Made by a program: the position numbers and the translations under genes
Shown: positions 3,922 through 64,000 of the stretch, piece after piece
Position numbering within the stretch: position 1 is the stretch's first letter
How the letters are laid out: the number at the start of each line of letters is the position of its first letter
The notes under the pieces: model-generated
What the model was told of the DNA's origin: nothing
The model's database searches: none
Seen by the model: the letters and a program-made list of their open reading frames with translations, nothing else
Virus record (IMG/VR): IMGVR_UViG_3300042453_002958
Location: 13,376-77,375 of that record
Length of the DNA stretch: 64,000 nt
Strand: one strand, 5' to 3'
DNA from: a virus

Positions 3922-4206
3922 ATGGAGCCCGCCATGCCAGCCCCGCGTGATCGACACCCGGGCGGACGGCCGCGGACGCGGGCGCCGTCGCCGCTGTTCG
4001 TTCGGATCGAATCCTTGGCACGGCGTAGGGGGCTTCGTCTCGACCAGCTAGCAGAAATCGCCGGCGTCGGCCGTGCAACGCTCTACCAGCTGAACGACCC
4101 GAAGGTGTCAACCGCCCGCGCGATCGCCGCAGCTCTCGGTGTGACGCTGGACCGTCTAACGCGAGACGAACCCGCCGCGAAGCCGCGCCGCCAACGGTCG
4201 GCGTGA
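3922..4206 (+). CDS. XRE/Cro-family HTH regulator
   Basis: LDQLAEIAGVGRATLYQL...AIAAALGVTLDRL; start may be 3934. Confidence 0.8.
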   Translation: MEPAMPAPRDRHPGGRPRTRAPSPLFVRIESLARRRGLRLDQLAEIAGVGRATLYQLNDPKVSTARAIAAALGVTLDRLTRDEPAAKPRRQRSA

Positions 4207-4322
4207 TATGCGGCGGATGATAACGTCGGCCACTCGCGTCACGCGGCCGGGCAACGCGCGATCGGCGGGGTGATATGCGGCACACCCGCCGCTACGGGGA
4301 ACCGCAGAAACAATGGTTCTCC
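4203..4322 (+). other. attI-like recombination site (copy X)
   Basis: GTGATATGCGGC direct repeats at 4203 and 4270, then GAACCGCAGAAACAATG-GTTCTCC; homologous to the reverse complement of 57934-58052. Confidence 0.6.
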
Positions 4323-5209: not shown

Positions 5210-5404
5210 ATGCTGAGGCTACGCCGCAGAGTGGGCGAGCGGATCGTCGTCATCCCGCCGGACTCCGGGCCGATCCGTGTGACGGTCGTGGAAGTGGACG
5301 GGGGCAAAGTGTGGATCGGAGTGGACGCCGACGCGGACACGAAGATCTACCGCGAAGAGGTATACCGACGAGTGCTCGAGGAGCGACAGCAGCCGCAGGA
5401 ATGA
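5210..5404 (+). CDS. csrA: CsrA/RsmA-like RNA-binding protein
   Basis: MLRLRRRVGERI...VTVVEVDGGKVWIGVDA...IYREEV. Confidence 0.8.
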   Translation: MLRLRRRVGERIVVIPPDSGPIRVTVVEVDGGKVWIGVDADADTKIYREEVYRRVLEERQQPQE

Positions 5405-5664
5405 TGCCGATGGGTTGCATCGCTGGCGACGCCATGCCGGGCGACGCGGAGGCGGCGGGGGCCGCGGCCGAAATCGCCGAGCAGGCCGGACTGTGCCGCG
5501 GGGATCTGGTGCTGTTCTTCGACGCTGAACGCGGGTTTCGCCAGCTCACCGCGGCATGGGTGATCCAGGTGACGACGCGCGGAGATGTCGTCGTCGAAAC
5601 GTGCCTGGAGCGGTGCGAGCTGCTCGTGTCGGCCAGCCAGATCGCGCGGAGGATCCCGTCGTGA
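5401..5664 (+). CDS. Hypothetical protein
   Basis: ATGA-coupled ORF in early operon. Confidence 0.5.
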   Translation: MMPMGCIAGDAMPGDAEAAGAAAEIAEQAGLCRGDLVLFFDAERGFRQLTAAWVIQVTTRGDVVVETCLERCELLVSASQIARRIPS

Positions 5665-5888
5665 AGCAACTCAACCGATCGGCGAGGGTGAGCCGGCGGC
5701 CAGCGGACGCTGCCGCGTGGATGCGAGCCCGGGTGTGGCGTCTGGTGCAGGCCGTGCGGCAGCTGCACGAGTCGGAAGTCTGCGTGTCCGCGAAGACCTA
5801 CCGACAGGATCCGATGCTCCGAATGCTGGTCCGCGACACCGCGGACGAAATCGCGGCCGAGCTCCGCGTGCAAGGGGGGCCACTGTGA
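5661..5888 (+). CDS. Hypothetical protein
   Basis: GTGA-coupled ORF. Confidence 0.45.
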   Translation: MKQLNRSARVSRRPADAAAWMRARVWRLVQAVRQLHESEVCVSAKTYRQDPMLRMLVRDTADEIAAELRVQGGPL

Positions 5889-6046
5889 TGACCGCGTGTT
5901 TCGTGGCCGGGATCGCCGTCGGCGTCGGATGCACCGCTCTGGCGGTGGTGTTCGGCGCGGTGACGGCGTGCTGCTCGCGACGTAGCGATCGGCACTGGGA
6001 CTGTGTTCGTGACCAACTGTTTTCCCACGATGGAGGTGAGCGATGA
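5888..6046 (+). CDS. Small membrane protein
   Basis: Hydrophobic N-terminus, coupled to neighbours. Confidence 0.4.
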   Translation: MTACFVAGIAVGVGCTALAVVFGAVTACCSRRSDRHWDCVRDQLFSHDGGER

Positions 6047-6879
6047 CCGAATCTGCGATTGCGGTGACACCGGCCAAGCGGTCGGTGCTGATGACGATGG
6101 CGACACGCTACGGGATGGAGCCCGAAGCGTTCGAGGCGACCGTGCGGGCCACATGCGGCATGGCGGGTGCGACACGCGAGGAGTTCGCGGCGTTCCTGCT
6201 CGTCGCGAAGGAATACGCCCTGAACCCGGCCACGCGAGAAATCTACGCGTTTCCGAAAAAGGGCGGCGGAATCCAGCCGATCGTGTCCATCGACGGGTGG
6301 ATCACGATGGGGAACAACCACCCGCAGATGGATGGCCTCGAGGTCGACTTCCAGCACGACGACGCCGGGAAGTTGGTGTCGGCTACGGCCCGCGTCTTTC
6401 GGAAGGATCGGTCGCACCCGGTCGTCGTGACGGAGTATCTGGCCGAGTGCATCCGGCCGACGGACCCGTGGAAGATGCAGCACCGGATGCTCCGGCACAA
6501 GGCGGCGATCCAAGCCTTCCGCTACGCGTTCGGCTTCTCGGGGATCATGGAGCCGGACGAAGCCGAGGGGGTCGAGAGCCGGGCGGCCAGCACGACCACG
6601 CCCGAGCCGCGCGCGGTGCAAGAGCTGCCACCGCTGACCGAGGCCGAGTGGCAAAAGCTGATGCCCGCGTGGATCCGTGCGGTCGCGGCCGGCCGCAAAA
6701 CGGGCGGCGACATCCTCGCCTTTGCCCGGACGCGGTGGTCGCTGACCGACGGCCAAGCCGACCAGATCATGCTGATCGGCGCCACCGTCGCCGATGACGG
6801 CGAAATCGTCGAGGCCGTGGCGGTGGGCCGCGGTGACGCGTGGGAACCGCCGGTCGGCGACGAAGGGGGTGCCGCATGA
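6043..6879 (+). CDS. bet: Bet/RecT-family ssDNA annealing protein
   Basis: LNPATREIYAFP, IVSIDGW, PW...RMLRHKA.IQA.RYAFGFSGI. Confidence 0.9.
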   Translation: MTESAIAVTPAKRSVLMTMATRYGMEPEAFEATVRATCGMAGATREEFAAFLLVAKEYALNPATREIYAFPKKGGGIQPIVSIDGWITMGNNHPQMDGLEVDFQHDDAGKLVSATARVFRKDRSHPVVVTEYLAECIRPTDPWKMQHRMLRHKAAIQAFRYAFGFSGIMEPDEAEGVESRAASTTTPEPRAVQELPPLTEAEWQKLMPAWIRAVAAGRKTGGDILAFARTRWSLTDGQADQIMLIGATVADDGEIVEAVAVGRGDAWEPPVGDEGGAA

Positions 6880-8558
6880 AGATCATCTCGCTCGCCCAAG
6901 GCTCGCCGGAGTGGCTCGCGCACCGCGCCGCCCACTTCAACGCAAGCGACGCGCCGGCCATGCTCGGGTGCTCCCCGCACAAAAGCCGCCGACAGCTGCT
7001 CGCGGAGTGTGCCACGGGCATCACGCCGGAAGTCGACCCGGCGACGCAACGGCGGTTCAACAACGGCCACCGGCTGGAAGCCCTCGCGCGGCCCATGGCC
7101 GAGCAAATCGTCGGCGAGCCGCTCTACCCGGTGACGGGCACGAACGGCCGCTACTCCGCGAGTTTCGACGGTCTGACGCTCGGGGGCGAAACCGCATTCG
7201 AGCACAAGGCGCTCAACGGCGACATCCGGGCCGCGTTCCAATCCGGGGCCGACCTGCCCATGCACTACCGCGTGCAGATGGAGCACCAACTGCTCGTGAG
7301 CGGGGCCGGTCGCGTGCTGTTCGTGGCGAGCGATTGGGACGCCGCCGGGAATCTGCTCGAGTCGCACCACCGCTGGGTCGAATCGGACCCGGTGCTCCGC
7401 GAGCGGATCGTGGCCGGATGGACGCAGTTCGCGGCCGACCTAATGTCCTTCGAGCCGGCCGCGCCGGCGGAAGCGGCGCCGGTGGGAACCGCGCCGGAAA
7501 CGCTGCCGGCCCTGCGGATCGAAGTCGAGGGCACCGTCATCGCCAGCAACCTCCAGACGTTCCGCGAAACCGCCATCACGGCAATCCGCCACGTCCGCCG
7601 AGACTTGACGACCGATCAGGACTTCGCGGACGCGGAGCTGTCGGTCAAATGGTGCCGGGAAGTCGAGACCCGGATCGACGCCGCCAAGGCTCACGCGCTG
7701 TCGCAGACCGCGTCCATCGAAGAGCTTTTCCGCACGCTCGACGACGTGTCCGCGGAGGCTCGCCGGGTGCGGCTCGACCTGGAGAAGCTGGTCCGCGGGC
7801 GGAAGGATGAAATCCGAACGTCGATCGTGGTCGACGCCCAGCGGGCGCTGGCGAAGCATGTCGCCATGCTGTCGGCCGAAACCATGCCCTTCGAGCTTCG
7901 GCCGCCGGCGGCGGACTTCGGCGGGGCGGTCAAGGGGAAGCGTTCGATCACGGCCATGCACGACGCCGTCGACCACGCTCTGGCCGACGCCAAGATGGCC
8001 GCGGACGCGGAGGCCCGGGTCGTGCGAGCAAACGTCGCCGCATTCCGCGACATGGCGGCGGGCCGCGAGTCGCTCTTCCCCGACGGCGGGAAACTGATCG
8101 GCATGGAGCCGGCGGCGTTCCGCGAGTTGGTGGCCGGCCGGATCGCCCGGGCTGACGCGGAAAACGCGGAGCGTGCCCGGAAGGCCGCGGAAGCGGCAAC
8201 GGCGGCGGCGCCGGAAGCGGCCACGCCGCCGGCCGTGCTCCACCAAACGACCGGCCCGGGGGCGCCGGAAACCGCGGCGGCGGCCGCGGCGGACGACGAC
8301 TTCGGCGACGGCGACGAAGCGGCCAGCGAACCGGCCACGCTGAGCCTTGGCGACATCAACGCCCGGCTCGGGATCACGATGTCGGCCGCGTTCATCGCCA
8401 ACACGCTGCAAGTGGCGCCAGCCGGGCGGAATCGCCGGGCGCTGCTGTTCACCGATCGCCAGTTCCGGGCCATCTGCCAGCGGCTGGCGTCGCACGTTCA
8501 CGCGGTGAGCGCGCGGACTCGTGTTCGGGAAGTTGCAACGATCGGAGATGAATCATGA
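6876..8558 (+). CDS. YqaJ-like viral recombinase exonuclease with coiled-coil extension
   Basis: QGSPEWLAHR, ASDAPAMLG, SASFDG, EHK, Y..QMEHQLLV. Confidence 0.88.
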   Translation: MKIISLAQGSPEWLAHRAAHFNASDAPAMLGCSPHKSRRQLLAECATGITPEVDPATQRRFNNGHRLEALARPMAEQIVGEPLYPVTGTNGRYSASFDGLTLGGETAFEHKALNGDIRAAFQSGADLPMHYRVQMEHQLLVSGAGRVLFVASDWDAAGNLLESHHRWVESDPVLRERIVAGWTQFAADLMSFEPAAPAEAAPVGTAPETLPALRIEVEGTVIASNLQTFRETAITAIRHVRRDLTTDQDFADAELSVKWCREVETRIDAAKAHALSQTASIEELFRTLDDVSAEARRVRLDLEKLVRGRKDEIRTSIVVDAQRALAKHVAMLSAETMPFELRPPAADFGGAVKGKRSITAMHDAVDHALADAKMAADAEARVVRANVAAFRDMAAGRESLFPDGGKLIGMEPAAFRELVAGRIARADAENAERARKAAEAATAAAPEAATPPAVLHQTTGPGAPETAAAAAADDDFGDGDEAASEPATLSLGDINARLGITMSAAFIANTLQVAPAGRNRRALLFTDRQFRAICQRLASHVHAVSARTRVREVATIGDES

Positions 8559-13294: not shown

Positions 13295-13486
13295 ATGAAA
13301 ATCGACCCCGCCCACTACGTTCGAGTCGGAACCGCCGCGAAAATCGCCGGAGTGACGCGTGCCTACGTTCGCCGACTGATACACGAGCAAAAGCTCGAGG
13401 CGATCCCGCTGGACGGGATCTTTCTGGTGCGTCGACGTGACGCCGAAGCCCTGAAACGCCACCGCGAGGAGCGCGACCATGACTGA
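13295..13486 (+). CDS. HTH_17/excisionase-like DNA-binding protein
   Basis: MKIDPAHYVRVGTAAKIAGVTRAYVRRLI; homologous to 41927-42160. Confidence 0.75.
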   Translation: MKIDPAHYVRVGTAAKIAGVTRAYVRRLIHEQKLEAIPLDGIFLVRRRDAEALKRHREERDHD

Positions 13487-21472: not shown

Positions 21473-23383
21473 ATGAGCGACACGATCACGGTCGACGGCG
21501 GCGAAACGATCATCGTGGCGCCGGACGCGTGCGCGACCGCTGACTGCGAAGTGCTCGTCAGCATCGTCACGGGCCAGGACGGTGCCGTCGGGCCAGCCGG
21601 ACCGCAGGGGCCGGCGGGTGCAGCTGGACAAACCGGACCCGCCGGGGCCGCCGGGCCGCAGGGACCGGCAGGGCCAGCCGGGGCAACGGGGGCAACGGGG
21701 CCAGCAGGGGCGACCGGGGCCGCAGGGCCGACCGGACCGCAGGGGCCGGCGGGGGCGGCCGGTGCCGCCGGCCCGCAAGGGCCAGCCGGGCCAGCCGGCA
21801 CGACGACCTGGGCCGGGATCACGGACAAGCCGGCCACGTTCGCGCCGTCCGATCATGCCCACGGCGCCATCACGCCCGACGGAAGGATCGGCGACAACAC
21901 GACATCAGGGCGATTCGTCGTCACGACCGACCTGGGAGACCTGGCCACGGCCGGCGCCTCGACGGGCAGGTCGCTGCTCGGCCTCGGCGGCGCGGCGACG
22001 CTGAACGTCGGCACCGCGGCCGGCACGGTGGCGGCGGGCAACGACGCGCGGCTCTCCGACGCGCGGACGCCGACGGCCCACACCCACGCCAACCTCGGCA
22101 CGGAGGATGCAAAGCAAGACTTCTACATCAACCTCGCCAACGGCCTGCCAAACATCGAAAACGGCGTGCCGACTGAGGTAAACCATCGCGCCGTGGCGTG
22201 GATTCAGAATAGAAGCCACTTCGGCGCGGGTCGGTTCAATCATTACGGCGAGTTCCCGGCACACGCCGGGCAATATAGCGCGACTTTCGGATGGGCCTGT
22301 CACGTCATCGACAACACAACTTCATCGGACGGCAATCAAGCGAAGGGCAGTTTCGCCGCCGGTTACGGCAACACTGTCGGCGCGTCGATGTCGTCGGCGC
22401 TCGGCCAATACAACCTCGTCCGAAACGTAGGGCACGCGATTGGCGCATACAACCAGGTCGGCGGATCGGGCGACCAGATTGTGGCGCACAACTGGACAAG
22501 CCCGACCGCAAGCCACTCTGTCGAGATCAGCGGAAACAGGTCATCGACGTATCCCGTAGGCACTGTGGTTGCGGTCCTTTTGGCGAGCGCCTCGAATGTG
22601 GACTCTTGGCAGCCAAACAAGGTTTCGGCGGTCTCCTACAACGCCGGAACGAACAGGACCGTGATTACGCTTGTCGCGCCGGCCGAGTTTCAAGCGGCCA
22701 CGACTGATTTTTTGGAGCAGGCGAGCGGGATCGGACAATCCAACGTCCTTACTCGCTCTCTGATCTGCACGCTAAACGGCGGCGGCGAGGGGATCGCGAT
22801 CGGATGGCGAAACATCATCCCGACATCCCGCGGGTTCGCAATCGGTACCGATCACAACCTGGTGGGCCAACACGGATTCGCGCTCGGTCGCCAGGTCGTG
22901 ACGAAGAACGCCTACCAGGGCGGCTTTGGAACCGGCTACCTGATGAACGGCTCGACGCGGCATATCGCGCAGATGAATATGTGGTGCCTGAAGCGGCGCA
23001 CCACCGACGCCACGCCGGCGGTGATGACGATCGACGGACTGTCCACGGTGGCCTCGACCAACTCCATCATTTTAGAGGAGCGGTCGGTATATCGGATGCG
23101 ATTTGAAATCGCCGGACGTGGGACTGGGGACATAGCCTACGGCGAAACAATCACGGCAACCGTCAAGCGAGACGGGTCTTCAAACCTGACGATTGTCGGG
23201 CAGGCGAGCTCTAACAAGCACACCGACAGCGGCCTTTCGACTGCATCTGCCACCCTAAAAGCAAACGGGACGCTCGACTCCGTAGAGCTGGAAGTGACCG
23301 GCGTCGCTGGGACCACGATCATCTGGCACGCATACGTCGAGGCGTCGCAAATCTCAAACGACTACACGGCAAACTCTTTGTAA
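21473..23383 (+). CDS. Collagen-like fibre/adhesin protein
   Basis: Long Gly-X-Y run at about 21575-21800; YadA-head-like repeats; lower-GC C-terminal part. Confidence 0.8.
22047..22173 (+). repeat. Direct repeat copy 1 (identical to 63874-64000)
   Basis: 127 bp identical up to the window end; diverged similarity extends back to about 21781/63611. Confidence 0.9.
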
Positions 23384-54037: not shown

Positions 54038-54513
54038 TCGGCATCGACCCCGGGATCACCGGGGCGATCGCGGTGATCGGCGACGGCCAGGTGGCGTGCC
54101 GGGAGATGCCGGCCGTTGAGATCAACGGCCGGCGGCGGGTGGACCCGGCGGGGCTTACCACCGCCCTCGCGGCAATCCTGCAGGCCGGCCACCAGGTCGA
54201 GATGGCGGTGCTGGAGCACGTCCAGGGCGTGCAGGGCACCGGGGCCACGTCCGCGTTCAGTTTCGGCCGGTCGTTCGGCGTGGTCGAGGGCGTGCTGGCC
54301 GGGCTCGCGATCCCGCACACGCTGGTCCGCCCGCAGGTGTGGACCAAGGCACTGGGCGTGAGCCGGGACAAGGGCAGCCACCGGGCCGCGGCGGCCCGGC
54401 TCTGGCCGAAGCACGCGGATCTATTCGCCCGCGTGAAGGACGACGGGCGTGCCGACGCGGTGCTGCTCTGCCACTGGTACGAGAGGTGTCATGGGACGTC
54501 CGCCGTCGGCTGA
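54025..54513 (+). CDS. RuvC-like Holliday junction resolvase
   Basis: IGIDPG.TGA, LEHV, SAFSFG, P..W, DGRADA. Confidence 0.85.
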   Translation: MGLLIGIDPGITGAIAVIGDGQVACREMPAVEINGRRRVDPAGLTTALAAILQAGHQVEMAVLEHVQGVQGTGATSAFSFGRSFGVVEGVLAGLAIPHTLVRPQVWTKALGVSRDKGSHRAAAARLWPKHADLFARVKDDGRADAVLLCHWYERCHGTSAVG

Positions 54514-56605
54514 CCCGGCCAAGGCCGCAGAGCGAAAGCGGCTGCTCGACCTGGAGCGGACCCGCGAGCGTACGCGCCGCGGGGCCGACATCGGCGAGAT
54601 CCCGAAGGTGGTGGACGCCGCCCGGCGGGAGTCGTGCCGGCTCGACCTGGAGCGGTTCCTGGTCACCTACTTCCCGTACTCCACCGGGCTGTCGCCGTTC
54701 AGCGACGACCACAAGCGGGTGATCTCGCGGATCCAGGACTGCGTGACGCGCGGCGGCCGGTTCGTGAACGCGGTCTACCGCGGTTTTTCTAAGAGCACGA
54801 TCAGCGAGTTGGCGCTTATGTGGGCCGTGCTCTACGGCCACCGCCGGTTCGGCGGGATCTTCGCGGCCGAGAGCGACCTGGCCGCCAAGGCAATCAACTC
54901 GATCCGCACCGAGCTCAGCGACAACGACCTGCTCTACGACGACTTCCCAGAGGTGTGCCACGCGGTGCGGGCTCTTGAGGGCAAGGCGCAGCGTTGCAAC
55001 TCGCAGACCCACAACGGCAAGCGGACCCACATCGGCTGGAAGAAAGACACGCTCGTGCTGCCGACGATCGAGGGGTCGGTGTCAAGCGGGGCGATCATCA
55101 TGAGCCGCGGGCTCACCGGCTCGATCCTTGGGCTCCGGTGGAAAACGCCCGAGGGCCACCAGCTGCGGCCCGACTTCACGATAGTGGACGACCCGCAGAC
55201 CCGCGAGTCGGCCAGGTCGCCGGTGCAGTGCCAGGCCCGGCTGGAGATCTTAACCAAAAGTGTCATGAAGCTCGCCGGTCACACCAAGAGCATGGCGTGC
55301 GTGGTCAACGCGACGGTGATCGAGCAGGACGACATGGTGGACCAGCTGCTCGACCAGGGCCGCTACCCGGCGTGGCAGGGCGAGCGGATCCCGATGGTCC
55401 GGCAGTTCGCCGACCGCCACGAAGACTTGTGGATGGAGCGGTATCGCGAGTTGCGATGCACGTTCGCGAAGGACGTGGTGGGCGACCAGGCCCGAGCCCA
55501 CCGCGAGGCCAACGAGTTCTACGCCGCCAACCGCGACGAGATGGACCGCGGCTGTCTGGTGTCGTGGGCGTCGTGCTTCGACCCGGACGTTGAAGTCTCC
55601 GCGATCCAGCACGCATACAACGCCCTCATCGACGACGGGCCGGACGTGTTCGCGAGCGAGTTTCAACAAGCCCCCCTCAAGAACGCGGCGGAGTCGCTGG
55701 GGATCTCCCCGGACGAGGTCCGGGGCCGGGCCATCGAAATACCCGTGGGCGTGGTTCCGCGTGGGTGCGACACGCTCACGGCGTTCGTGGACGTGCAGGA
55801 GAAGCTCCTGTATTGGGCGGTGGTGGCATGGGGCTCGCAGCTCCGCGGGCACCTGGTGGCGTACGGGGCTTACCCCGAGCAGGGCCGGAGCTACTACACG
55901 CTCCGCGACTCGAAGAAGACGCTCGTGAAGGCTGCCGGCGGGGCTTCGCTGGAGGCCGCGATCCACGCGGGGCTTGAGGCCGTGGCGGCGTCGCTGCTGG
56001 GCCGGGAGTTCACCCGAGAAGATGACGACGCGGTGCTGCGGGTGGGGCAGCTGTTCGTCGATGCCAACTGGGCACAGACGCAGGGCGTCGTCCGCGACTT
56101 CGCCCGCCGGTCGTCGTTCGGGCCGCGGGTGCTGCCGACCCATGGCCGGTTCGTGGGTGCGAGCGGCCAGACGATCTCGGACAAGCGGCCGGACCGCGGC
56201 GAGCGGATCGGGCACAACTGGCGGACGAGCACGATCGGCAAGCAGCGGCACGTTCTCTACGACACGAACGCATGGAAGACGTTCGTGGCGTCCCGGCTCA
56301 AGCTGCCGGCCGCCGACCCGCAAGCGTTTACCGTCCACGCGGGCTCGCACGAGATGCTCGTGGAGCACCTGTCGGCGGAGGCCCCGGTTCGCGTCGAGTC
56401 GAAGATGCGGACGGTGGACGAGTGGAAGTTGATCCCGGGCCGCGACAACCACTGGTGGGACTGTCTCGTCGGTGCCGCGGTGGCCGCGAGCTACTCCGGC
56501 GTGACGGCCGTGGGGGCCGAGGTGGTCAAGCCCGTGCGAAAGGTCATCACCCGCGAGGAGATGGCGGCCCGCCGTGCGGCGATCATGGGCAAGATGGGCA
56601 GATGA
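54491..56605 (+). CDS. terL: Terminase large subunit (gpA-like)
   Basis: YRGFSKST, IVDDPQT, FVDVQ, DNHWWDC; homologous to 14424-16529. Confidence 0.9.
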   Translation: MGRPPSADPAKAAERKRLLDLERTRERTRRGADIGEIPKVVDAARRESCRLDLERFLVTYFPYSTGLSPFSDDHKRVISRIQDCVTRGGRFVNAVYRGFSKSTISELALMWAVLYGHRRFGGIFAAESDLAAKAINSIRTELSDNDLLYDDFPEVCHAVRALEGKAQRCNSQTHNGKRTHIGWKKDTLVLPTIEGSVSSGAIIMSRGLTGSILGLRWKTPEGHQLRPDFTIVDDPQTRESARSPVQCQARLEILTKSVMKLAGHTKSMACVVNATVIEQDDMVDQLLDQGRYPAWQGERIPMVRQFADRHEDLWMERYRELRCTFAKDVVGDQARAHREANEFYAANRDEMDRGCLVSWASCFDPDVEVSAIQHAYNALIDDGPDVFASEFQQAPLKNAAESLGISPDEVRGRAIEIPVGVVPRGCDTLTAFVDVQEKLLYWAVVAWGSQLRGHLVAYGAYPEQGRSYYTLRDSKKTLVKAAGGASLEAAIHAGLEAVAASLLGREFTREDDDAVLRVGQLFVDANWAQTQGVVRDFARRSSFGPRVLPTHGRFVGASGQTISDKRPDRGERIGHNWRTSTIGKQRHVLYDTNAWKTFVASRLKLPAADPQAFTVHAGSHEMLVEHLSAEAPVRVESKMRTVDEWKLIPGRDNHWWDCLVGAAVAASYSGVTAVGAEVVKPVRKVITREEMAARRAAIMGKMGR

Positions 56606-56681
56606 ACCGAGGTTGACACCTGTTCACCACCGGGCAGACTGCGGGAGGTTCGATGGTCTCCCATTCTGAAAGGAGTCTCTG

Positions 56682-56990
56682 ATGCGTTTTCTTTCGTTGC
56701 TCGTGGTGCTGCTCGCGTCGTCGGCCGTGGCCCAGGACACGGTGATCGTGAGCCGTCGCCCGGTGACGGTCGTGCAGTCGTCGGCCCAGGACGCGGCCGT
56801 GGTGCTGGCCCGCCGCGGGGCGCTCGTGCATACCGGCTGCGGCCAGACCGAGGGCATCGGCTTCTCGACCGTCTCGGCCGAGCACGCCAAGCGGTCGTGT
56901 TGCTACTGGGGCCGGCGGACGCCGACGGACATCGGCATCGCGTGGAGCCCGCTGCGTCGCGGCTGGTTCGCGGTCGTGAGGTATCGCTGA
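56682..56990 (+). CDS. Secreted protein (possibly CAP/SCP-like)
   Basis: Signal peptide; H...EGIG...CCYW...IG.A....GW.A..RY. Confidence 0.55.
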   Translation: MRFLSLLVVLLASSAVAQDTVIVSRRPVTVVQSSAQDAAVVLARRGALVHTGCGQTEGIGFSTVSAEHAKRSCCYWGRRTPTDIGIAWSPLRRGWFAVVRYR

Positions 56991-57238
56991 TGCACGACTT
57001 CTCGCCGGTCACCGCCGTGCTGGTGTTCGCAACGTACGTCGTCATCGACGTGCTCTACGCGGCATACATCATCGCGGTCGGTGACCGGCGGGCGGTCCGT
57101 GCCGCGGCCCTTTCCGCGGTGATCTACTCGCTGCTCGCGTACGGGGTGGTGACGTTCTCGAAGAACATCGCGTACCTGGTGCCGCTGGCGGCGGGGGCGT
57201 TCGTGGGCACGTACGTGACGGTGCGGTGGCGGCGATGA
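56990..57238 (+). CDS. Small 3-TM membrane protein
   Basis: Hydrophobic helices, GAFVGT. Confidence 0.65.
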   Translation: MHDFSPVTAVLVFATYVVIDVLYAAYIIAVGDRRAVRAAALSAVIYSLLAYGVVTFSKNIAYLVPLAAGAFVGTYVTVRWRR

Positions 57239-57636
57239 GCGACGACATCGTGTGGAGGCTTCGCCGATGGGTGGACCGCGAGATCAGCGAAGATGATCCG
57301 GCCGGTGCCATTTCTGCGGCCATCGACGAGATAGTTGAGTTGCGTCACCGGCTCGCGGAGCTAGGGGCGATCGTGCGAACTTCGCGGACCAGAAAAGAGG
57401 CGACCGAGGCCGCCGACCGGCTCGCGCCGATGGACGTGCGTTCGCTGCTGCTGAATGGGTTTCATCAAGTCGATAAGGCGTGGAGGTCGCAGTCGCCGAG
57501 TCAGGTTTTGTCGCAAGAAAACTTGACGCTCTCCGACGCGGAGCGGGAGGCGATTGCGGTTGCAAGGCGGTGCCTGTTGCCATGCCACGAGGACTTCGAC
57601 GCCACACTACGCGCGTTGCTGGAACGGTTGGGCTGA
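57235..57636 (+). CDS. Hypothetical protein (possible second cassette ORF)
   Basis: DIV.RLR; TL.D.EREAI...TLR.LLERL; stop codon lies inside an attC R box. Confidence 0.55.
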   Translation: MSDDIVWRLRRWVDREISEDDPAGAISAAIDEIVELRHRLAELGAIVRTSRTRKEATEAADRLAPMDVRSLLLNGFHQVDKAWRSQSPSQVLSQENLTLSDAEREAIAVARRCLLPCHEDFDATLRALLERLG

Positions 57637-57682
57637 GAACGCCAGCGATCAGCGGCTCGTCCGCTGCATCGCGTGGTTATGC
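57634..57682 (-). other. attC integron-cassette recombination site
   Basis: Minus strand GCATAAC-CACGC-GATGCAGC-GGACGAGCC-GCTGATC-GCTGGC-GTTCTCA (R''-5-L''-centre-L'-6-R'; extra base at L'' position 4). Confidence 0.8.
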
Positions 57683-57939
57683 CGGATAGGAGTACAAAGG
57701 AGACAAGCATGAGCGATCCCAGCACTGATGTGATCCGCCGAGTGTTTGACGAAAGCGGCAAGCATTTCGTTGAGGTCGGCCCGTTTCCCGATGACCCTGG
57801 ATGCGTGGAGTTGCGCACAGTGCCGGGCGAGGGGAGCGACGAGTGGTACGGCAAGTTGAGCCTGTCCATGACGCCGAGACTGGCCCGCGAACTGGGGCGA
57901 GCCCTGATTGACGCAGCGAGCGACTGCGAGAAGGCATAA
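57640..57939 (-). mobile_element. Integron-type gene cassette (300 bp)
   Basis: Starts G/TTATGC at the attI junction and carries the complementary GCATAAC R'' in its attC. Confidence 0.7.
57709..57939 (+). CDS. Cassette-encoded hypothetical protein (76 aa)
   Basis: AAGGAG RBS; TAA inside the R box. Confidence 0.7.
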   Translation: MSDPSTDVIRRVFDESGKHFVEVGPFPDDPGCVELRTVPGEGSDEWYGKLSLSMTPRLARELGRALIDAASDCEKA

Positions 57940-58052
57940 CCAGTGTTTCTGCGGTTCTCGATAGCAGCCCCCTTGCCGCATATCACCCCGCCGATTCCGC
58001 GCCGCACGGCCGCGTGACGCTCGCCGCCGCCGCTATCAGTGCCGCATAGCAC
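57934..58052 (-). other. attI-like site (copy Y)
   Basis: GTG(A/C)TATGCGGC direct repeats, GAACCGCAGAAACACTG-GTTATGC; homologous to 4203-4322. Confidence 0.65.
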
Positions 58053-58150
58053 ACCCGTCGCCCCCGGCGACACGACGCGATTTCATGTCGCCGATCGGGT
58101 CGAAGGGCGACAGGTCGGCAGGGGTAAAATGGCGGTAAGGAGACCCCGCC

Positions 58151-58258
58151 ATGCCAGCGTATCTCGACGAGCAGTTCTTCGACGAGCTGGACGACGAGAT
58201 CAACGCGGCGGATCAAGTCATCTGGATCGAGTGGCTCGACGGGCCGATCGGTACGTGA
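58151..58258 (+). CDS. Small acidic peptide (35 aa)
   Basis: AAGGAG RBS; 10 D/E and no K/R. Confidence 0.5.
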   Translation: MPAYLDEQFFDELDDEINAADQVIWIEWLDGPIGT

Positions 58259-58309
58259 ACACTGGTACACTGTTGGTAGGGACGCGAATCCCGCGCCCCT
58301 CACCGGAGT

Positions 58310-58525
58310 GTGGCAGTGGCGACGACCGACGAAGTGCTCGACGCAGTTGCGGCGAATCTCGCCCAGCCGAAGCGCGCCCGCACCGACGCCGGTGAGGTCG
58401 AGCAGCACGACCTCGACAAGCAGGTCGCCGCGGCCCGGTTCGTGATCGACGCCCAGGCCCGCACGGTCTCGCCGTTTCGCTCGCTGCGGTTCGCGCAGAT
58501 CGAATCCCCGGGGGCCAACGGCTGA
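58310..58525 (+). CDS. Head-tail joining protein (gpW-like)
   Basis: Homologous to 16834-17034. Confidence 0.65.
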   Translation: MAVATTDEVLDAVAANLAQPKRARTDAGEVEQHDLDKQVAAARFVIDAQARTVSPFRSLRFAQIESPGANG

Positions 58526-60294
58526 TGGGGATTCTCTCCGGACTGCTCGGGCCATCCCGGGCCACGATGCAGAGCACGATCGCGACCCAGCAGGCCGCGA
58601 TCGCGACGCTCGTGCGTGCGAAGTACGACGCCGCACAGACCACCGACCTGAACCGCCGGCACTGGGCGCTCGCCGACTACTACTCCGCCGACGCCGCCCT
58701 CTCCCCGGCCGTCCGGCAGCGGATGCGTGCTCGTGCCCGGTACGAGCTGGCCAACAACTCCTACGCCGCTGGCATGGCGTCCACCTGGTCGCACGACCTG
58801 GTCGGCACCGGCCCCCGGCTCCACCTGGATCTCGGGCCGGACGCCGACTCGGAGCTGGTCCGCCGGATCGAGCTGGCGGTCTACGACTGGTCGGTGAACA
58901 TCGACCTGGCGAAGAAGCTCCGCGTGGCCAAGCACGCGCGGGTCGGCGACGGCGAAGTGTTCGGCGTGCAGGTGACCAACCGCTCGCTCCGGGGCGTGCA
59001 GGTGGACCTGCGGCTGATTGAGAGCGACCACTGCGTGTCGCCCACCGGCTTCCCCACCGAGACCGACGTGGACGGCGTCGAGTTCGACGACGACGGCAAC
59101 CCGGCCCGGTATTGGTTCACCCGCAACCACCCCGGCTCGCTCACGCCCGGCTGGACGCTCGACGGCCGGTGGCACGCCGCCGACAAGGTCCACCACTGGT
59201 TCCACGCGACCCGCCCGGGCCAGCACCGCGGTGTGCCGGAGATCGCCCCGGCTCTCGAACTGTTCGCCATGCTGCGGCGGTTCACGCTCGCGACCGTGAC
59301 CGCCGCGGAGACCGCGGCCGACTTCGCCGCGATTCTCAAGACGACCATGCCGGCCGACGGCGGCGGGGCCGCGTCGCTGGAGACGCTGGAGACCATGCCG
59401 ATCACCCGGGGGATGGCGATCGCCGCCCCGGACGGCTGGGAGCCGGTGCAGATGAAGGCCGAGCACCCGACGAGCAGCTACGACTCGTTCGTGCGTCGGC
59501 TCCTCAACGAGATCAGCCGCTGCATCGACATGCCCTACATCGTGGCCGCGATGGACTCGTCCACCGCGAACTACTCGTCGATGCGGGGCGACTACCTGGT
59601 CTACCGCAAGCGGATCTCGGTCGAACGCAACGACATGGAGCGGGTGTTCCTCGACCCGCTGCTCGTGGCGTGGCTGGAGGAGGCCGCCCTGGTGCCGGGT
59701 CTCATCCCCGACGGGCTGCCGCCGGTCGCCGAGTGGAACTGGACTTGGACGTGGGACGGGTTCGAGCACGTAGATCCACTGAAGGAGGCCGACGCCGAGG
59801 CGGCCATGCTCGCGGCCAACACGACGACCATCGCCGAGGTCTGCCAGAAGCGCAACAAGGACTGGCGGCAGGTGCTGCGGCAGAGGGCCGTGGAGAAGAC
59901 GCTGGAGCGTGAGTTGGGTATTTCGATGGGCGAACCCGTCGCGGCCGACGCCGGCGACACCGACATCGAAGCCGCCGACGGCTACCGGCCGCCGCAGGCC
60001 GCAAGGTCCGCGGCCCGGCGCGGCCTGGAGCTGCGATCGAAATACGGCCGCGGCGGCACTGCGGTGGGCATCGCCCGGGCTCGCGACATCGCGGGCGGCC
60101 GGTCGCTCCCGCTGGACACGATCGCCCGGATGGTTTCGTTCTTCGCCCGGCACGCGGCCTACAAGGACAACCACGGCGAGGATCCGCCCTCCAACGCCGA
60201 AATCTCGTGGCTCCTGTGGGGCGGCGACGCCGGCCGGGCGTGGGCCGAGCGCATCTGGACCCGCGAGAACGCCGACGAGGAGCAGACCGCATGA
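58525..60294 (+). CDS. Portal protein, lambda family, with extra C-terminal domain
   Basis: RARARYE..NNSYA, DGEVF, RPGQHRGVP, NYSS.R, HVDPLKE; about 110-aa extension. Confidence 0.92.
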   Translation: MGILSGLLGPSRATMQSTIATQQAAIATLVRAKYDAAQTTDLNRRHWALADYYSADAALSPAVRQRMRARARYELANNSYAAGMASTWSHDLVGTGPRLHLDLGPDADSELVRRIELAVYDWSVNIDLAKKLRVAKHARVGDGEVFGVQVTNRSLRGVQVDLRLIESDHCVSPTGFPTETDVDGVEFDDDGNPARYWFTRNHPGSLTPGWTLDGRWHAADKVHHWFHATRPGQHRGVPEIAPALELFAMLRRFTLATVTAAETAADFAAILKTTMPADGGGAASLETLETMPITRGMAIAAPDGWEPVQMKAEHPTSSYDSFVRRLLNEISRCIDMPYIVAAMDSSTANYSSMRGDYLVYRKRISVERNDMERVFLDPLLVAWLEEAALVPGLIPDGLPPVAEWNWTWTWDGFEHVDPLKEADAEAAMLAANTTTIAEVCQKRNKDWRQVLRQRAVEKTLERELGISMGEPVAADAGDTDIEAADGYRPPQAARSAARRGLELRSKYGRGGTAVGIARARDIAGGRSLPLDTIARMVSFFARHAAYKDNHGEDPPSNAEISWLLWGGDAGRAWAERIWTRENADEEQTA

Positions 60295-63315: not shown

Positions 63316-64000
63316 TGGCCGAAATCAAGGGCACGAACGTCGTGGCCCCGGTGGTGCCGCTGGACACCGCCGACGTGCATCCCACGCACGCCGCGGCCTA
63401 CGGGCTGGGCGGCTATCGCACGGTCGCGAGCGACGCCGAGCGCGACGCGATCCCGGCTCCGCGTCGCGAGCAGGGGATGCTGGTGTTCGTCACCGCGACC
63501 GGCATGACGTGGCGGCTCGGGTCCGACCTGACGACGTGGACCGAAGGTGGCGGTGGTGGCGGGGCAACCGGCCCAACCGGCCCCGCTTCGACGGCGACAG
63601 GCCCGACAGGGCCGGCCGGGCCAGCCGGGACGACGACCTGGGCCGGGATCACGGACAAGCCGGCTCTGGCGGCGGCCGATCACAATCACGGCAGCATCAC
63701 GAGCGACGGCCGGATCGGCGACAACACGACCTCCGGGCGATTCGTGGTCACGACCGACCTGGGAGATCTGGCCGTAGCCACACCTTCGGGGGTGCGGACG
63801 ATGCTCGGCCTCGGCGGCGCGGCGACGCTCAACGTCGGCACCGCGGCCGGCACGGTGGCGGCCGGCGACGACTCGCGGCTCTCCGACGCGCGGACGCCGA
63901 CGGCCCACACCCACGCCAACCTCGGCACGGAGGATGCAAAGCAAGACTTCTACATCAACCTCGCCAACGGCCTGCCAAACATCGAAAACGGCGTGCCGAC
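63315..64000 (+). CDS. Fibre protein of phage Y (partial, runs off window)
   Basis: Short collagen-like run, then sequence converging on 21473-23383. Confidence 0.8.
   Translation, partial: MAEIKGTNVVAPVVPLDTADVHPTHAAAYGLGGYRTVASDAERDAIPAPRREQGMLVFVTATGMTWRLGSDLTTWTEGGGGGGATGPTGPASTATGPTGPAGPAGTTTWAGITDKPALAAADHNHGSITSDGRIGDNTTSGRFVVTTDLGDLAVATPSGVRTMLGLGGAATLNVGTAAGTVAAGDDSRLSDARTPTAHTHANLGTEDAKQDFYINLANGLPNIENGVP

Follow-up and report, generated by a model that had tools for sequence, protein, structure and literature searches.

Can a phage that encodes no integron integrase nevertheless carry the docking site and the cassettes of an integron? The question is raised by the interval between the large terminase and portal genes in a 64,000-nucleotide stretch of virus DNA, hereafter the window (positions 13,376 to 77,375 of the IMG/VR virus record IMGVR_UViG_3300042453_002958, a 77-kb record of 67% G+C), in which a preliminary description, made from the letters alone, had seen an attI-like site, a captured cassette and an attC site. 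Integrons are regarded as bacterial devices, and phage attC clusters have been reported only recently and are rare in cultured phages. As argued below, we consider it likely that this phage carries an integron-type cassette platform without an integrase of its own, and that cassettes are swapped at a defined AA|C junction, most likely by a host IntI acting in trans.

The attC-type site occupies 49 nt at 57634-57682, with the plus strand showing bottom-strand geometry: TGAGAAC, 6 nt, GATCAGC.., a 5-nt loop, ..GCTG[C]ATC with the extra C bulged, 5 nt, and GTTATGC (57676-57682), so that the spacers are asymmetric, the 5' one having 6 nt and the 3' one 5 nt. On the minus strand, the same site runs R'' GCATAAC, 5 nt, GATGCAGC, which has the one extra base, a centre of 9 nt, GCTGATC, 6 nt, and GTTCTCA, that is, the R'', L'', L' and R' boxes are all present as initially described. 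The bottom strand of a classical site such as attC aadA7 consists of AAC, 6 nt, a 7-nt arm, then an 8-nt arm with one extra base, 5 nt, and GTT; the phage site has this geometry, with C instead of G as the extra base. DNA folding of the 49 nt was better than that of shuffles, with z of about -2.9 and -3.0 for the two strands. The attC calls rest on two covariance models, R1 and R2, built from this element family, with R2 derived from 150 elements of other viral contigs and the window left out. The window site scores 52.3 bits with R1 and, independently, 51.3 bits with R2 (E 1.3e-11, the sole significant match in the 64 kb, the next one having E 0.18), and the anticipated match to an attC model was thus obtained.

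The element belongs to a large and structurally constrained family. Among 76 related viral loci, which were fetched with the portal as query (L-numbers below denote related loci), the interval between the terminase and the gpW-like gene that precedes the portal ranges from about 170 bp to 4.7 kb, and a hairpin of ~45 nt recurs in many divergent loci (blastn). A structural regular expression retrieved 46 copies, all on the gene strand and either 41-48 or 80-83 nt long; in an alignment of 41 distinct copies (A1), AAC, GAT, CATC, GTT and the bulged C are invariant, and the stem pairs show 8-18 compensatory double changes. R1 detects 59 elements in the 76 loci and the window, with one copy in the whole record, and 240 copies, among the matches listed, in 78 further viral loci, where arrays reach about 15. 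At least 120 stretches hold the element according to a pattern scan of viral contigs, and the total, again among the matches listed, comes to about 300 copies in related viral contigs, with a single orientation per locus in 154 viral loci. Element lengths cluster at 41-50 nt and 79-83 nt, the window site being a short form (41 nt from AAC to GTT) of a family with mostly 79-83 nt. In a set of 139 distinct sequences, AAC and GTT are invariant as well, 99.6% of the cells are paired, as compared to 21-48% after a shift of the partner by one to three columns, and there are 175 double changes versus 51±18 in shuffles (0 of 500 shuffles reach 175), with 14-67 double changes in each of four stem pairs. 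Several relatives, with three (L010), eight (L050) and about 15 (L274) attC sites, are CALINs, i.e. clusters of two or more attC sites lacking an integrase (PMC4889954). In L052, two attC elements (1831-2250) are located upstream of the terminase rather than between terminase and portal; hence, even among phages of this group, the arrays can occupy more than one locus.

Where else does this element occur, and which strand is its top strand? When one genome per prokaryote species was scanned with the pattern, at least 120 stretches were found, nearly all of them in Planctomycetota and mostly in Pirellulales, and R1 identified in the bacterial loci, among the matches listed, 282 copies in 80 loci, in one-stranded arrays with a spacing of 300-700 bp. 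Four of the five Pirellulaceae genomes tested encode TIGR02249 integron integrases (360-405 bits). In Novipirellula, SH449 and Neorhodopirellula, the 5' end of intI is directly preceded by these elements, whose plus strand in the model is the intI coding strand. Since in the canonical layout the intI coding strand is the bottom strand of attC, the minus strand of the window is the attC top strand, in agreement with the preliminary description; the reverse assignment, which would take the plus strand as the top strand given that all genes are on it, is ruled out by the orientation of intI and by the AA|C junctions. Judging from its sequence, 57634-57682 is a genuine attC of the family that is used by the chromosomal integrons of Pirellulales, and Pirellulales are the likely hosts of the phage. 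The Pirellulaceae chromosomal integrons, which are sedentary, resemble the phage platform in attC family and geometry (GAT..[C]ATC, 5-nt spacer, GTT), in the one-stranded arrays and in the end rule described below; they differ in that they have an adjoining intI and top-strand genes, whereas the phage platform lacks intI, has the opposite gene orientation and draws on a separate pool of cassettes. An inverted-integrase layout was observed in L168, a contig of a lake Pirellulales metagenome-assembled genome (MAG), where attC (7405-7489) follows the 3' end of intI (5401-6345) and is on the opposite strand; the other Pirellulaceae loci are canonical.

The cassette in the window can be delimited as follows. 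Homology breaks, the end rule and insertions in sister phages jointly define a plus-strand unit of 300 bp (57640-57939), attC plus the downstream gene, that begins with the C of TGAGAA|C and ends with the AA of GCATAA|C. Its first heptamer, GTTATGC, had been described as the complement of R'' GCATAAC (57934-57940 on the plus strand); the match is exact and extends further, in that GTTATGCC (57676-57683, after attC) and GGCATAAC (57933-57940) form a perfect 8-nt inverted repeat, which would restore a paired R box in a circular cassette. The same holds throughout the arrays of relatives: the GTTxxxx after one element is the exact reverse complement of the xxxxAAC that opens the next element in about 27 of about 33 neighbour pairs, with inverted repeats of 7-10 nt, while complementarity between the own two ends of one element is mostly absent. 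This end rule reads as the footprint of a circular intermediate cut within the core site. The cassette is not non-coding on the plus strand: there it contains, on the same strand as the neighbouring genes, a gene for 76 amino acids, D76 (57709-57939), with the ribosome-binding site (RBS) AAGGAG and with its stop codon TAA inside GCATAAC. Among the 76 related viral loci and the window, D76 was found only in the window; it has no Pfam or PHROG match, and its homologues form 27 clusters, all unnamed. The homologue in L357 (58%) again belongs to a bottom-strand cassette, whose attC is a different one with the classical G as the extra base, and the one in L358 (44%) is an ordinary phage gene. The AlphaFold2 model of D76 (pLDDT 91) showed no significant fold match in the PDB.

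The cassette abuts the second component of the platform, an attI-like docking site at 57940-58055 (plus strand), with the AA|C junction at 57939/57940. The site is conserved in all close relatives, where the variable DNA always ends at xxxxAAC before it. It consists of the spacer CAGTGT, an L-like box TTCTGCGG (57947-57954), repeat b TGCCGCATATCAC (57974-57986) and repeat c TGCCGCATAGCAC (58040-58052); the relatives have CAGTG(A/T), GTATGCGG, about 19 nt, CCGCATA(A/T)CAC, about 53 nt, and a third copy GC(C/G)GCATAGCAC. On the minus strand, the order is DR2-like repeat, DR1-like repeat, inverted L-like box, 6 nt, G|TT. The two 13-nt repeats, TGCCGCATA(T/G)CAC, would not by themselves stand above noise, as 38 comparable two-copy repeat families occur in the same 2.1 kb; it is their spacing (about 66 nt) and sequence, recurring in relatives and in a further copy at 4200-4318, that bear out the earlier observation of two direct repeats in a minus-strand element ending in GTTATGC. 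A pattern scan found the attI-like element in 17 viral stretches, and seven of the 11 newly examined loci contain attC, always 5' of the element and on the same strand (seven sites in L328, four in L389). The copy at 4200-4318, on the minus strand (blastn, 78% over 119 nt, E 4e-22; homology starts at GGAGAA|C), belongs to what seems to be another phage genome in the record, phage X, and resides in an immunity region, within 450 nt of both a helix-turn-helix gene (3922-4206, plus strand, Pfam HTH_3) and the tyrosine recombinase gene IntX; no attC-like site was found upstream of it, and no GTTCTCC partner or cassette adjoins it.

In the attI1 site, recombination crosses over at G|TTRRRY, next to L and R boxes and the direct repeats DR1 and DR2. 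The phage site is alike in layout: the first cassette is flanked by G|TT, the inverted L-like box comes 6 nt away, and two further direct copies of the motif are found at ~19 and ~66 nt. Unlike attI1 of class 1 integrons, for which L and R boxes with DR1 and DR2 are given in the part of the phage survey PMC9892861 used here (Figure 4 legend), the phage site has no adjacent intI, spans about 120 nt and is strongly conserved over its whole length, which suggests additional functions. We speak of an attI-like site, rather than of attI, because no cognate intI adjoins; in sequence comparisons, 57940-58055 is attI-like by behaviour and layout, not by homology. Directly after the element, at 58056-58075, there is a perfect hairpin, GTCGCC(N3-4)GGCGAC, which is also found in L383, L385, L389 and L390, with a TTGACA-containing stretch in its place in L380 and L388; the attI-like module may include a terminator or may provide the genes downstream with a promoter.

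Do cassettes actually come and go at this junction? With the near-identical phages L010, L006 and L001-L007, homology (blastn) ends at 57678/57679 (..GCGTGGTT|) and resumes at 57932-57938 (|AAC..), and in the relative that contains L010 (41 kb, 100% complete) the place of D76 is taken by 2289 bp with three cassettes, one of which encodes a 560-aa C5 methylase. Exact insertions are seen in four sister phages. As compared to L027 and L028, L025 and L026 contain an extra 784-bp cassette, attC plus a C5-methylase-like gene, at TGAGAA|C..TAGTGA, exactly at the AA|C of the docking site, with flanks that are 100% identical (strict blastn). The junction reads ..TGAGAAC|TAGTGAATACGCGG.. in L027 and L028, and ..TGAGAAC|GCACAGGATCAGCGG.., 784 bp, ..GTCGGCGAAC|TAGTGAATACGCGG.. 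in L025 and L026, the inserted cassette bringing its own GTTCGCCGAC, complementary to the cassette end. To the right of AAC, attC and the attI-like site have no homology in these phages and, therefore, homologous exchange could not produce the junction seen in L025 and L026. L027 further has one additional 240-bp cassette as compared to L026. It follows from the insertions in the sister phages that the mobile unit is attC together with the downstream gene, cut at AA|C on the plus strand. Thus, the differing gene content at G/TT in relatives that the preliminary description had foreseen is seen as breaks at 57678/57679 and 57932-57938 and as a whole cassette at AA|C, and these comparisons of assembled contigs show gain, loss and replacement of cassettes at the AA|C / G|TT junctions of both attC and the attI-like site.

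The contigs of four lake-water metagenomes cover 57605-57671 at a depth of 10-40 fold; they diverge directly after 57678 and directly before 57634-57638, and in one contig the region of the preceding gene, C133, is joined to 57938, with D76 absent. These contigs support a hypervariable joint in the lake population. Joints such as 57678 to 57938 were not counted as evidence, their sides being only 20-26 letters long, with other arrays as a possible source. The phage cassettes are diverse, 202 of them forming 178 clusters at 90% identity. In the array of L312, the same cassette is present twice, at positions 3 and 5, as would be expected from excision and re-insertion.

The phage cassettes differ from the bacterial ones in the way their genes are laid out, the phage genes being on the bottom strand of attC, whereas genes of the bacterial arrays are on the top strand, upstream of attC. 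Of 194 long viral elements, 158 have an open reading frame (ORF) of at least 60 aa that begins within the attC loop, as compared to 29 of 176 bacterial elements. The 5' arm contains a GGAG-type motif resembling a Shine-Dalgarno sequence in 148 of 182 cases. Across GTT, the reading phase is constant in 155 of 182; translation of the 3' arm yields ..PASAGS or ..PSRGS. Of 290 elements, 261 have the stop codon of the preceding gene within xxxxAAC or just before it. In the short attC of the window, the loop has no start codon and D76 has its own RBS. A long attC has a Shine-Dalgarno motif in its 5' arm and a start codon in its loop, while its 3' arm codes for residues such as ..PASAGS, and any cassette that is captured could be expressed by read-through of late transcription, with probable coupling of translation across the hairpin. 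Expression after capture is envisaged because the bottom-strand genes share the strand of the late operon, have stop codons at xxxxAAC and find their start signals in attC. The cargo comprises 277 phage cassette proteins in 153 families, and the Pfam matches of 150 representatives are dominated by DUF551 (17), C5 methylase (6), N6_N4 methylase (4), Dam (2), Mom (2) and HNH (3-4), which suggests an exchangeable store of counter-defence genes and morons; the cargo would then serve counter-defence.

Which enzyme, then, moves the cassettes? No TIGR02249 candidate is encoded in the 77-kb record, and no IntI was found in the 78 further viral loci or in five further array-bearing viral records. The two tyrosine recombinases in the window, IntX of phage X (2817-3752, minus strand; PF00589, best match XerD with 41 bits) and IntY of the platform-bearing phage Y (46287-47303, minus strand; PF00589, 27.3 bits), are generic, not integron integrases, and the earlier statement that neither is an IntI has stood. 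Of 201 Pirellulaceae genomes sampled, 99 encode IntI, as do two of five element-bearing MAGs of lake Pirellulales; in lake MAGs, too, elements are found next to IntI genes. Since the phages lack IntI and about half of the sampled Pirellulaceae genomes possess it, a host IntI in trans is the likeliest enzyme. The proposed mechanism can be envisaged as follows. The cassette 57640-57939 is docked at 57940-58055, just ahead of a conserved 35-aa ORF, the gpW-like gene and the portal. As natural variants show, strand exchange is site-specific and takes place at AA|C of the plus strand, equivalent to G|TT on the minus (top) strand, either between attC and the attI-like site or between two attC sites; a host IntI would act in trans during infection or lysogeny. 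Cassettes would pass through circular forms, for which the expected junction is the cassette end GAAGGCATAA joined to CGCCAGCGATCAGC, and the expected empty site would have GGGCTGAGAA joined to CCAGTGTTTCTGCGG. We also lean, if only slightly, towards a broader view, in which phages of Planctomycetota keep a cassette pool of their own and parasitise the host IntI, the attC bottom strand encodes the RBS, the start codon and the first ~20 codons, the ~120-nt attI-like module is portable (head operon, immunity region), and the whole functions as a counter-defence store.

Several observations weigh against a host-driven platform. In classical attC sites, the extrahelical base of the bottom strand is G; here it is C, and the term 'canonical', which the preliminary description applied to this attC, fits the architecture and the boxes, not the extrahelical base. 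The window contains only one attC and falls short of the two-site definition of a CALIN, and the left, terminase-side end of the array is undefined. No recombination was directly observed, and assembled contigs can show neither circles nor rates. The phage attI-like sequence was not found in Pirellulaceae: a blastn search of 401 genomes with the whole element returned no copy, and comparison with 41 intI loci (blastn-short) yielded short matches at the level of motifs only. Matches of 20-45 nt in the 401 genomes, GC-rich and with E of 1e-4 to 1e-2, were taken as chance. The motif-level resemblance includes a Stieleria bergensis junction, ..AA|C CAGTAATTATGCGAGG, identical to the phage site in 14 of 17 nt, two repeats of 13 nt (13-15 nt) near intI in one Pirellulaceae genome that are identical to the phage repeat in the opposite orientation, and many copies of GGCCGCATAAC upstream of intI in two genomes. 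The layout of the phage site is compatible with putative integrase-binding boxes, related motifs occur near intI in three Pirellulaceae genomes, and the proposed similarity to bacterial attI survives as motifs, not as a shared element. Because attI sites are normally specific for the cognate IntI, as stated in the part of PMC2095811 that we cite, an attI-like site without a known partner IntI poses a difficulty. Finally, the phage and bacterial cassette pools barely overlap, with matches for 13 of the 277 phage proteins, all in small MAG contigs, and exchange with the host integrons is, therefore, not evident. The loci L109, L158, L164 and L183, short MAG-binned contigs with high-scoring phage-type attC, are the sole 'bacterial' loci in which phage cassette proteins find matches; probably, these contigs are phage DNA that was assigned to MAGs.

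These difficulties raise the alternative that the same sites are served by a non-IntI tyrosine recombinase of the phages, be it IntX, IntY or an unrecognised protein, which would make the platform self-sufficient. The attI-like copy of phage X is about 450 nt from IntX and on the same strand, in the relative position that intI takes beside the bacterial arrays, and both the negative search for a host attI matching the phage site and the separation of the two cassette pools also speak in its favour. However, the matches of IntX (XerD, 41 bits) and IntY (PF00589, 27 bits) are weak and generic, with no TIGR02249 signal, IntY is 11 kb away from the platform in phage Y, and a relative of IntX is encoded in only two of the 11 further attI-like loci, where it is not adjacent. 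Moreover, the attC family is shared with arrays that lie beside true IntI genes. We therefore regard a self-sufficient platform as unlikely, and a host IntI acting in trans as the better explanation.

Less probable still, and in our view quite doubtful, is modular shuffling by homologous recombination between repeats, with the hairpins being regulatory and the cassette-like appearance a by-product. A precedent is provided by the PeSL elements of T4-type phages, which contain an early promoter and for which homologous exchange has been proposed; like the elements described here, they are short conserved stem-loops that flank small variable genes in hyperplastic phage regions. The elements are, indeed, 80-nt repeats common to co-occurring phages, with many copies in the lake metagenomes and 10-40 fold depth on 57605-57671, and the hairpin covers RBS and start codon, so that a role at the RNA level is plausible. 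Yet the attI-like junction has no homology to the right of AAC, the breakpoints fall at AA|C instead of being spread over the repeat, and complementary heptamers flanking the gene body are predicted by a circular intermediate and not by homologous exchange. The comparison with PeSL fails on further counts: a scan of 56400-58700 found no promoter-like site, in particular no sigma-70-like promoter, the junctions are exact, and the elements are homologous to integron attC and flank bacterial IntI genes. The last possibility, a chance combination of a short intergenic hairpin with unrelated short repeats, to which the single copy in the window, the 13-nt repeats being no better than others in 2 kb and the pairing of R' GTTCTCA with R'' GCATAAC in only four of seven positions might point, is refuted by the independent covariance model (E 1.3e-11), the hundreds of homologous elements with covariation, the homology breaks at the predicted positions, the exact insertion in L025 and L026, and the attI-like element in 17 viral stretches and twice in the window.

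How does the integrase-less platform relate to what is known? According to the part of the survey of cultured phages by Qi, Rajabal, Ghaly, Tetu and Gillings (2023; PMC9892861) that is drawn on here, integron parts, including 17 CALINs, are present in 21 of 10,705 cultured phages, and IntI1 recombined five of the six phage attC sites tested. The similarity is substantial: phage-borne attC sites and cassettes without intI, DNA methyltransferases among the cargo, and an implied host integrase in trans. The differences, within the same part of that paper, are that none of the 21 phages came from Planctomycetota, a name absent from the paper, that neither an integrase-less attI-type docking site nor natural insertion variants are described, and that the typical arrays have a bacterial-style gene orientation, as opposed to the bottom-strand genes starting inside attC, the arrays of up to about 15 and the at least 120 viral stretches found here. 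Our literature searches retrieved no such report for Planctomycetota phages, and none on attI-type sites without an integrase, on natural variants of cassette insertion in phages or on genes starting inside attC. Hence, phage-borne CALINs have been known since 2023; what is new is the bottom-strand genes, mostly starting inside attC, and the docking site without an integrase.

Hundreds of sites, and arrays of up to about 15 cassettes, indicate that the system is in routine use in an entire group of uncultured phages, and the natural variants catch cassette insertion in the act. The layout with genes starting inside attC would solve the expression problem of a promoterless operon, and the platform offers a concrete mechanism for the turnover of morons and anti-restriction genes in phages. 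If this is true, the phage store mirrors the bacterial integrons that store anti-phage defence systems, and the activity of the host IntI is predicted to shape phage evolution. It also becomes testable whether IntI can serve an attI unlinked to it, and the cassettes constitute a large, easily mined set of small phage genes selected for portability, with candidates for counter-defence.

It remains to describe the genomic setting. The stretches 22047-22173 and 63874-64000 of the window are identical over 127 nt, and because exactly one phage gene set separates them, the 77-kb record seems to consist of two phage genomes, X and Y, joined via this identical stretch; the join may be an assembly artefact. 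The cassette platform belongs to the second genome, phage Y. The head module is lambda-like, with all its genes on the plus strand, in the order large terminase, A102, B82, C133, D76, 35-aa ORF, gpW-like gene, portal, protease-capsid fusion. The hypervariable interval is bordered on the left by the large terminase of lambda gpA type (54449-56605, plus strand; Pfam GpA_nuclease, 3.8e-24; PHROG terminase large subunit) and on the right by the gpW-like small head protein (58316-58525, plus strand; named from position and size only) together with the portal of the lambda family (58525-60294, plus strand; Pfam Phage_portal_2, 4e-57). The gpW-like gene, directly upstream of the portal, is kept in more than 60 relatives. 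The 35-aa ORF (MPAYLDEQFF..; 58151-58258, plus strand), with a strong RBS, follows the attI-like site and precedes the gpW-like gene; Pfam and PHROG gave no family match for it, and many relatives encode it with 46-97% identity (tblastn). In the interval 56400-58700, an Rfam scan yielded nothing relevant, and a terminator scan only two terminator-like sites, both within C133 on the other strand.

The gene C133 (57235-57636, plus strand) ends with a stop codon TGA that opens the attC heptamer TGAGAAC, and its C-terminus (..LTLSDAEREAI..LLERLG) is shared with the largest family among the phage cassette proteins (blastp against the cassette proteins). Between the terminase and C133, at 56682-57238, there are two small genes, A102, encoding a signal-peptide protein, and B82, encoding a two-helix membrane protein; with no attC sites bounding either gene, both recur in the same interval of many relatives.

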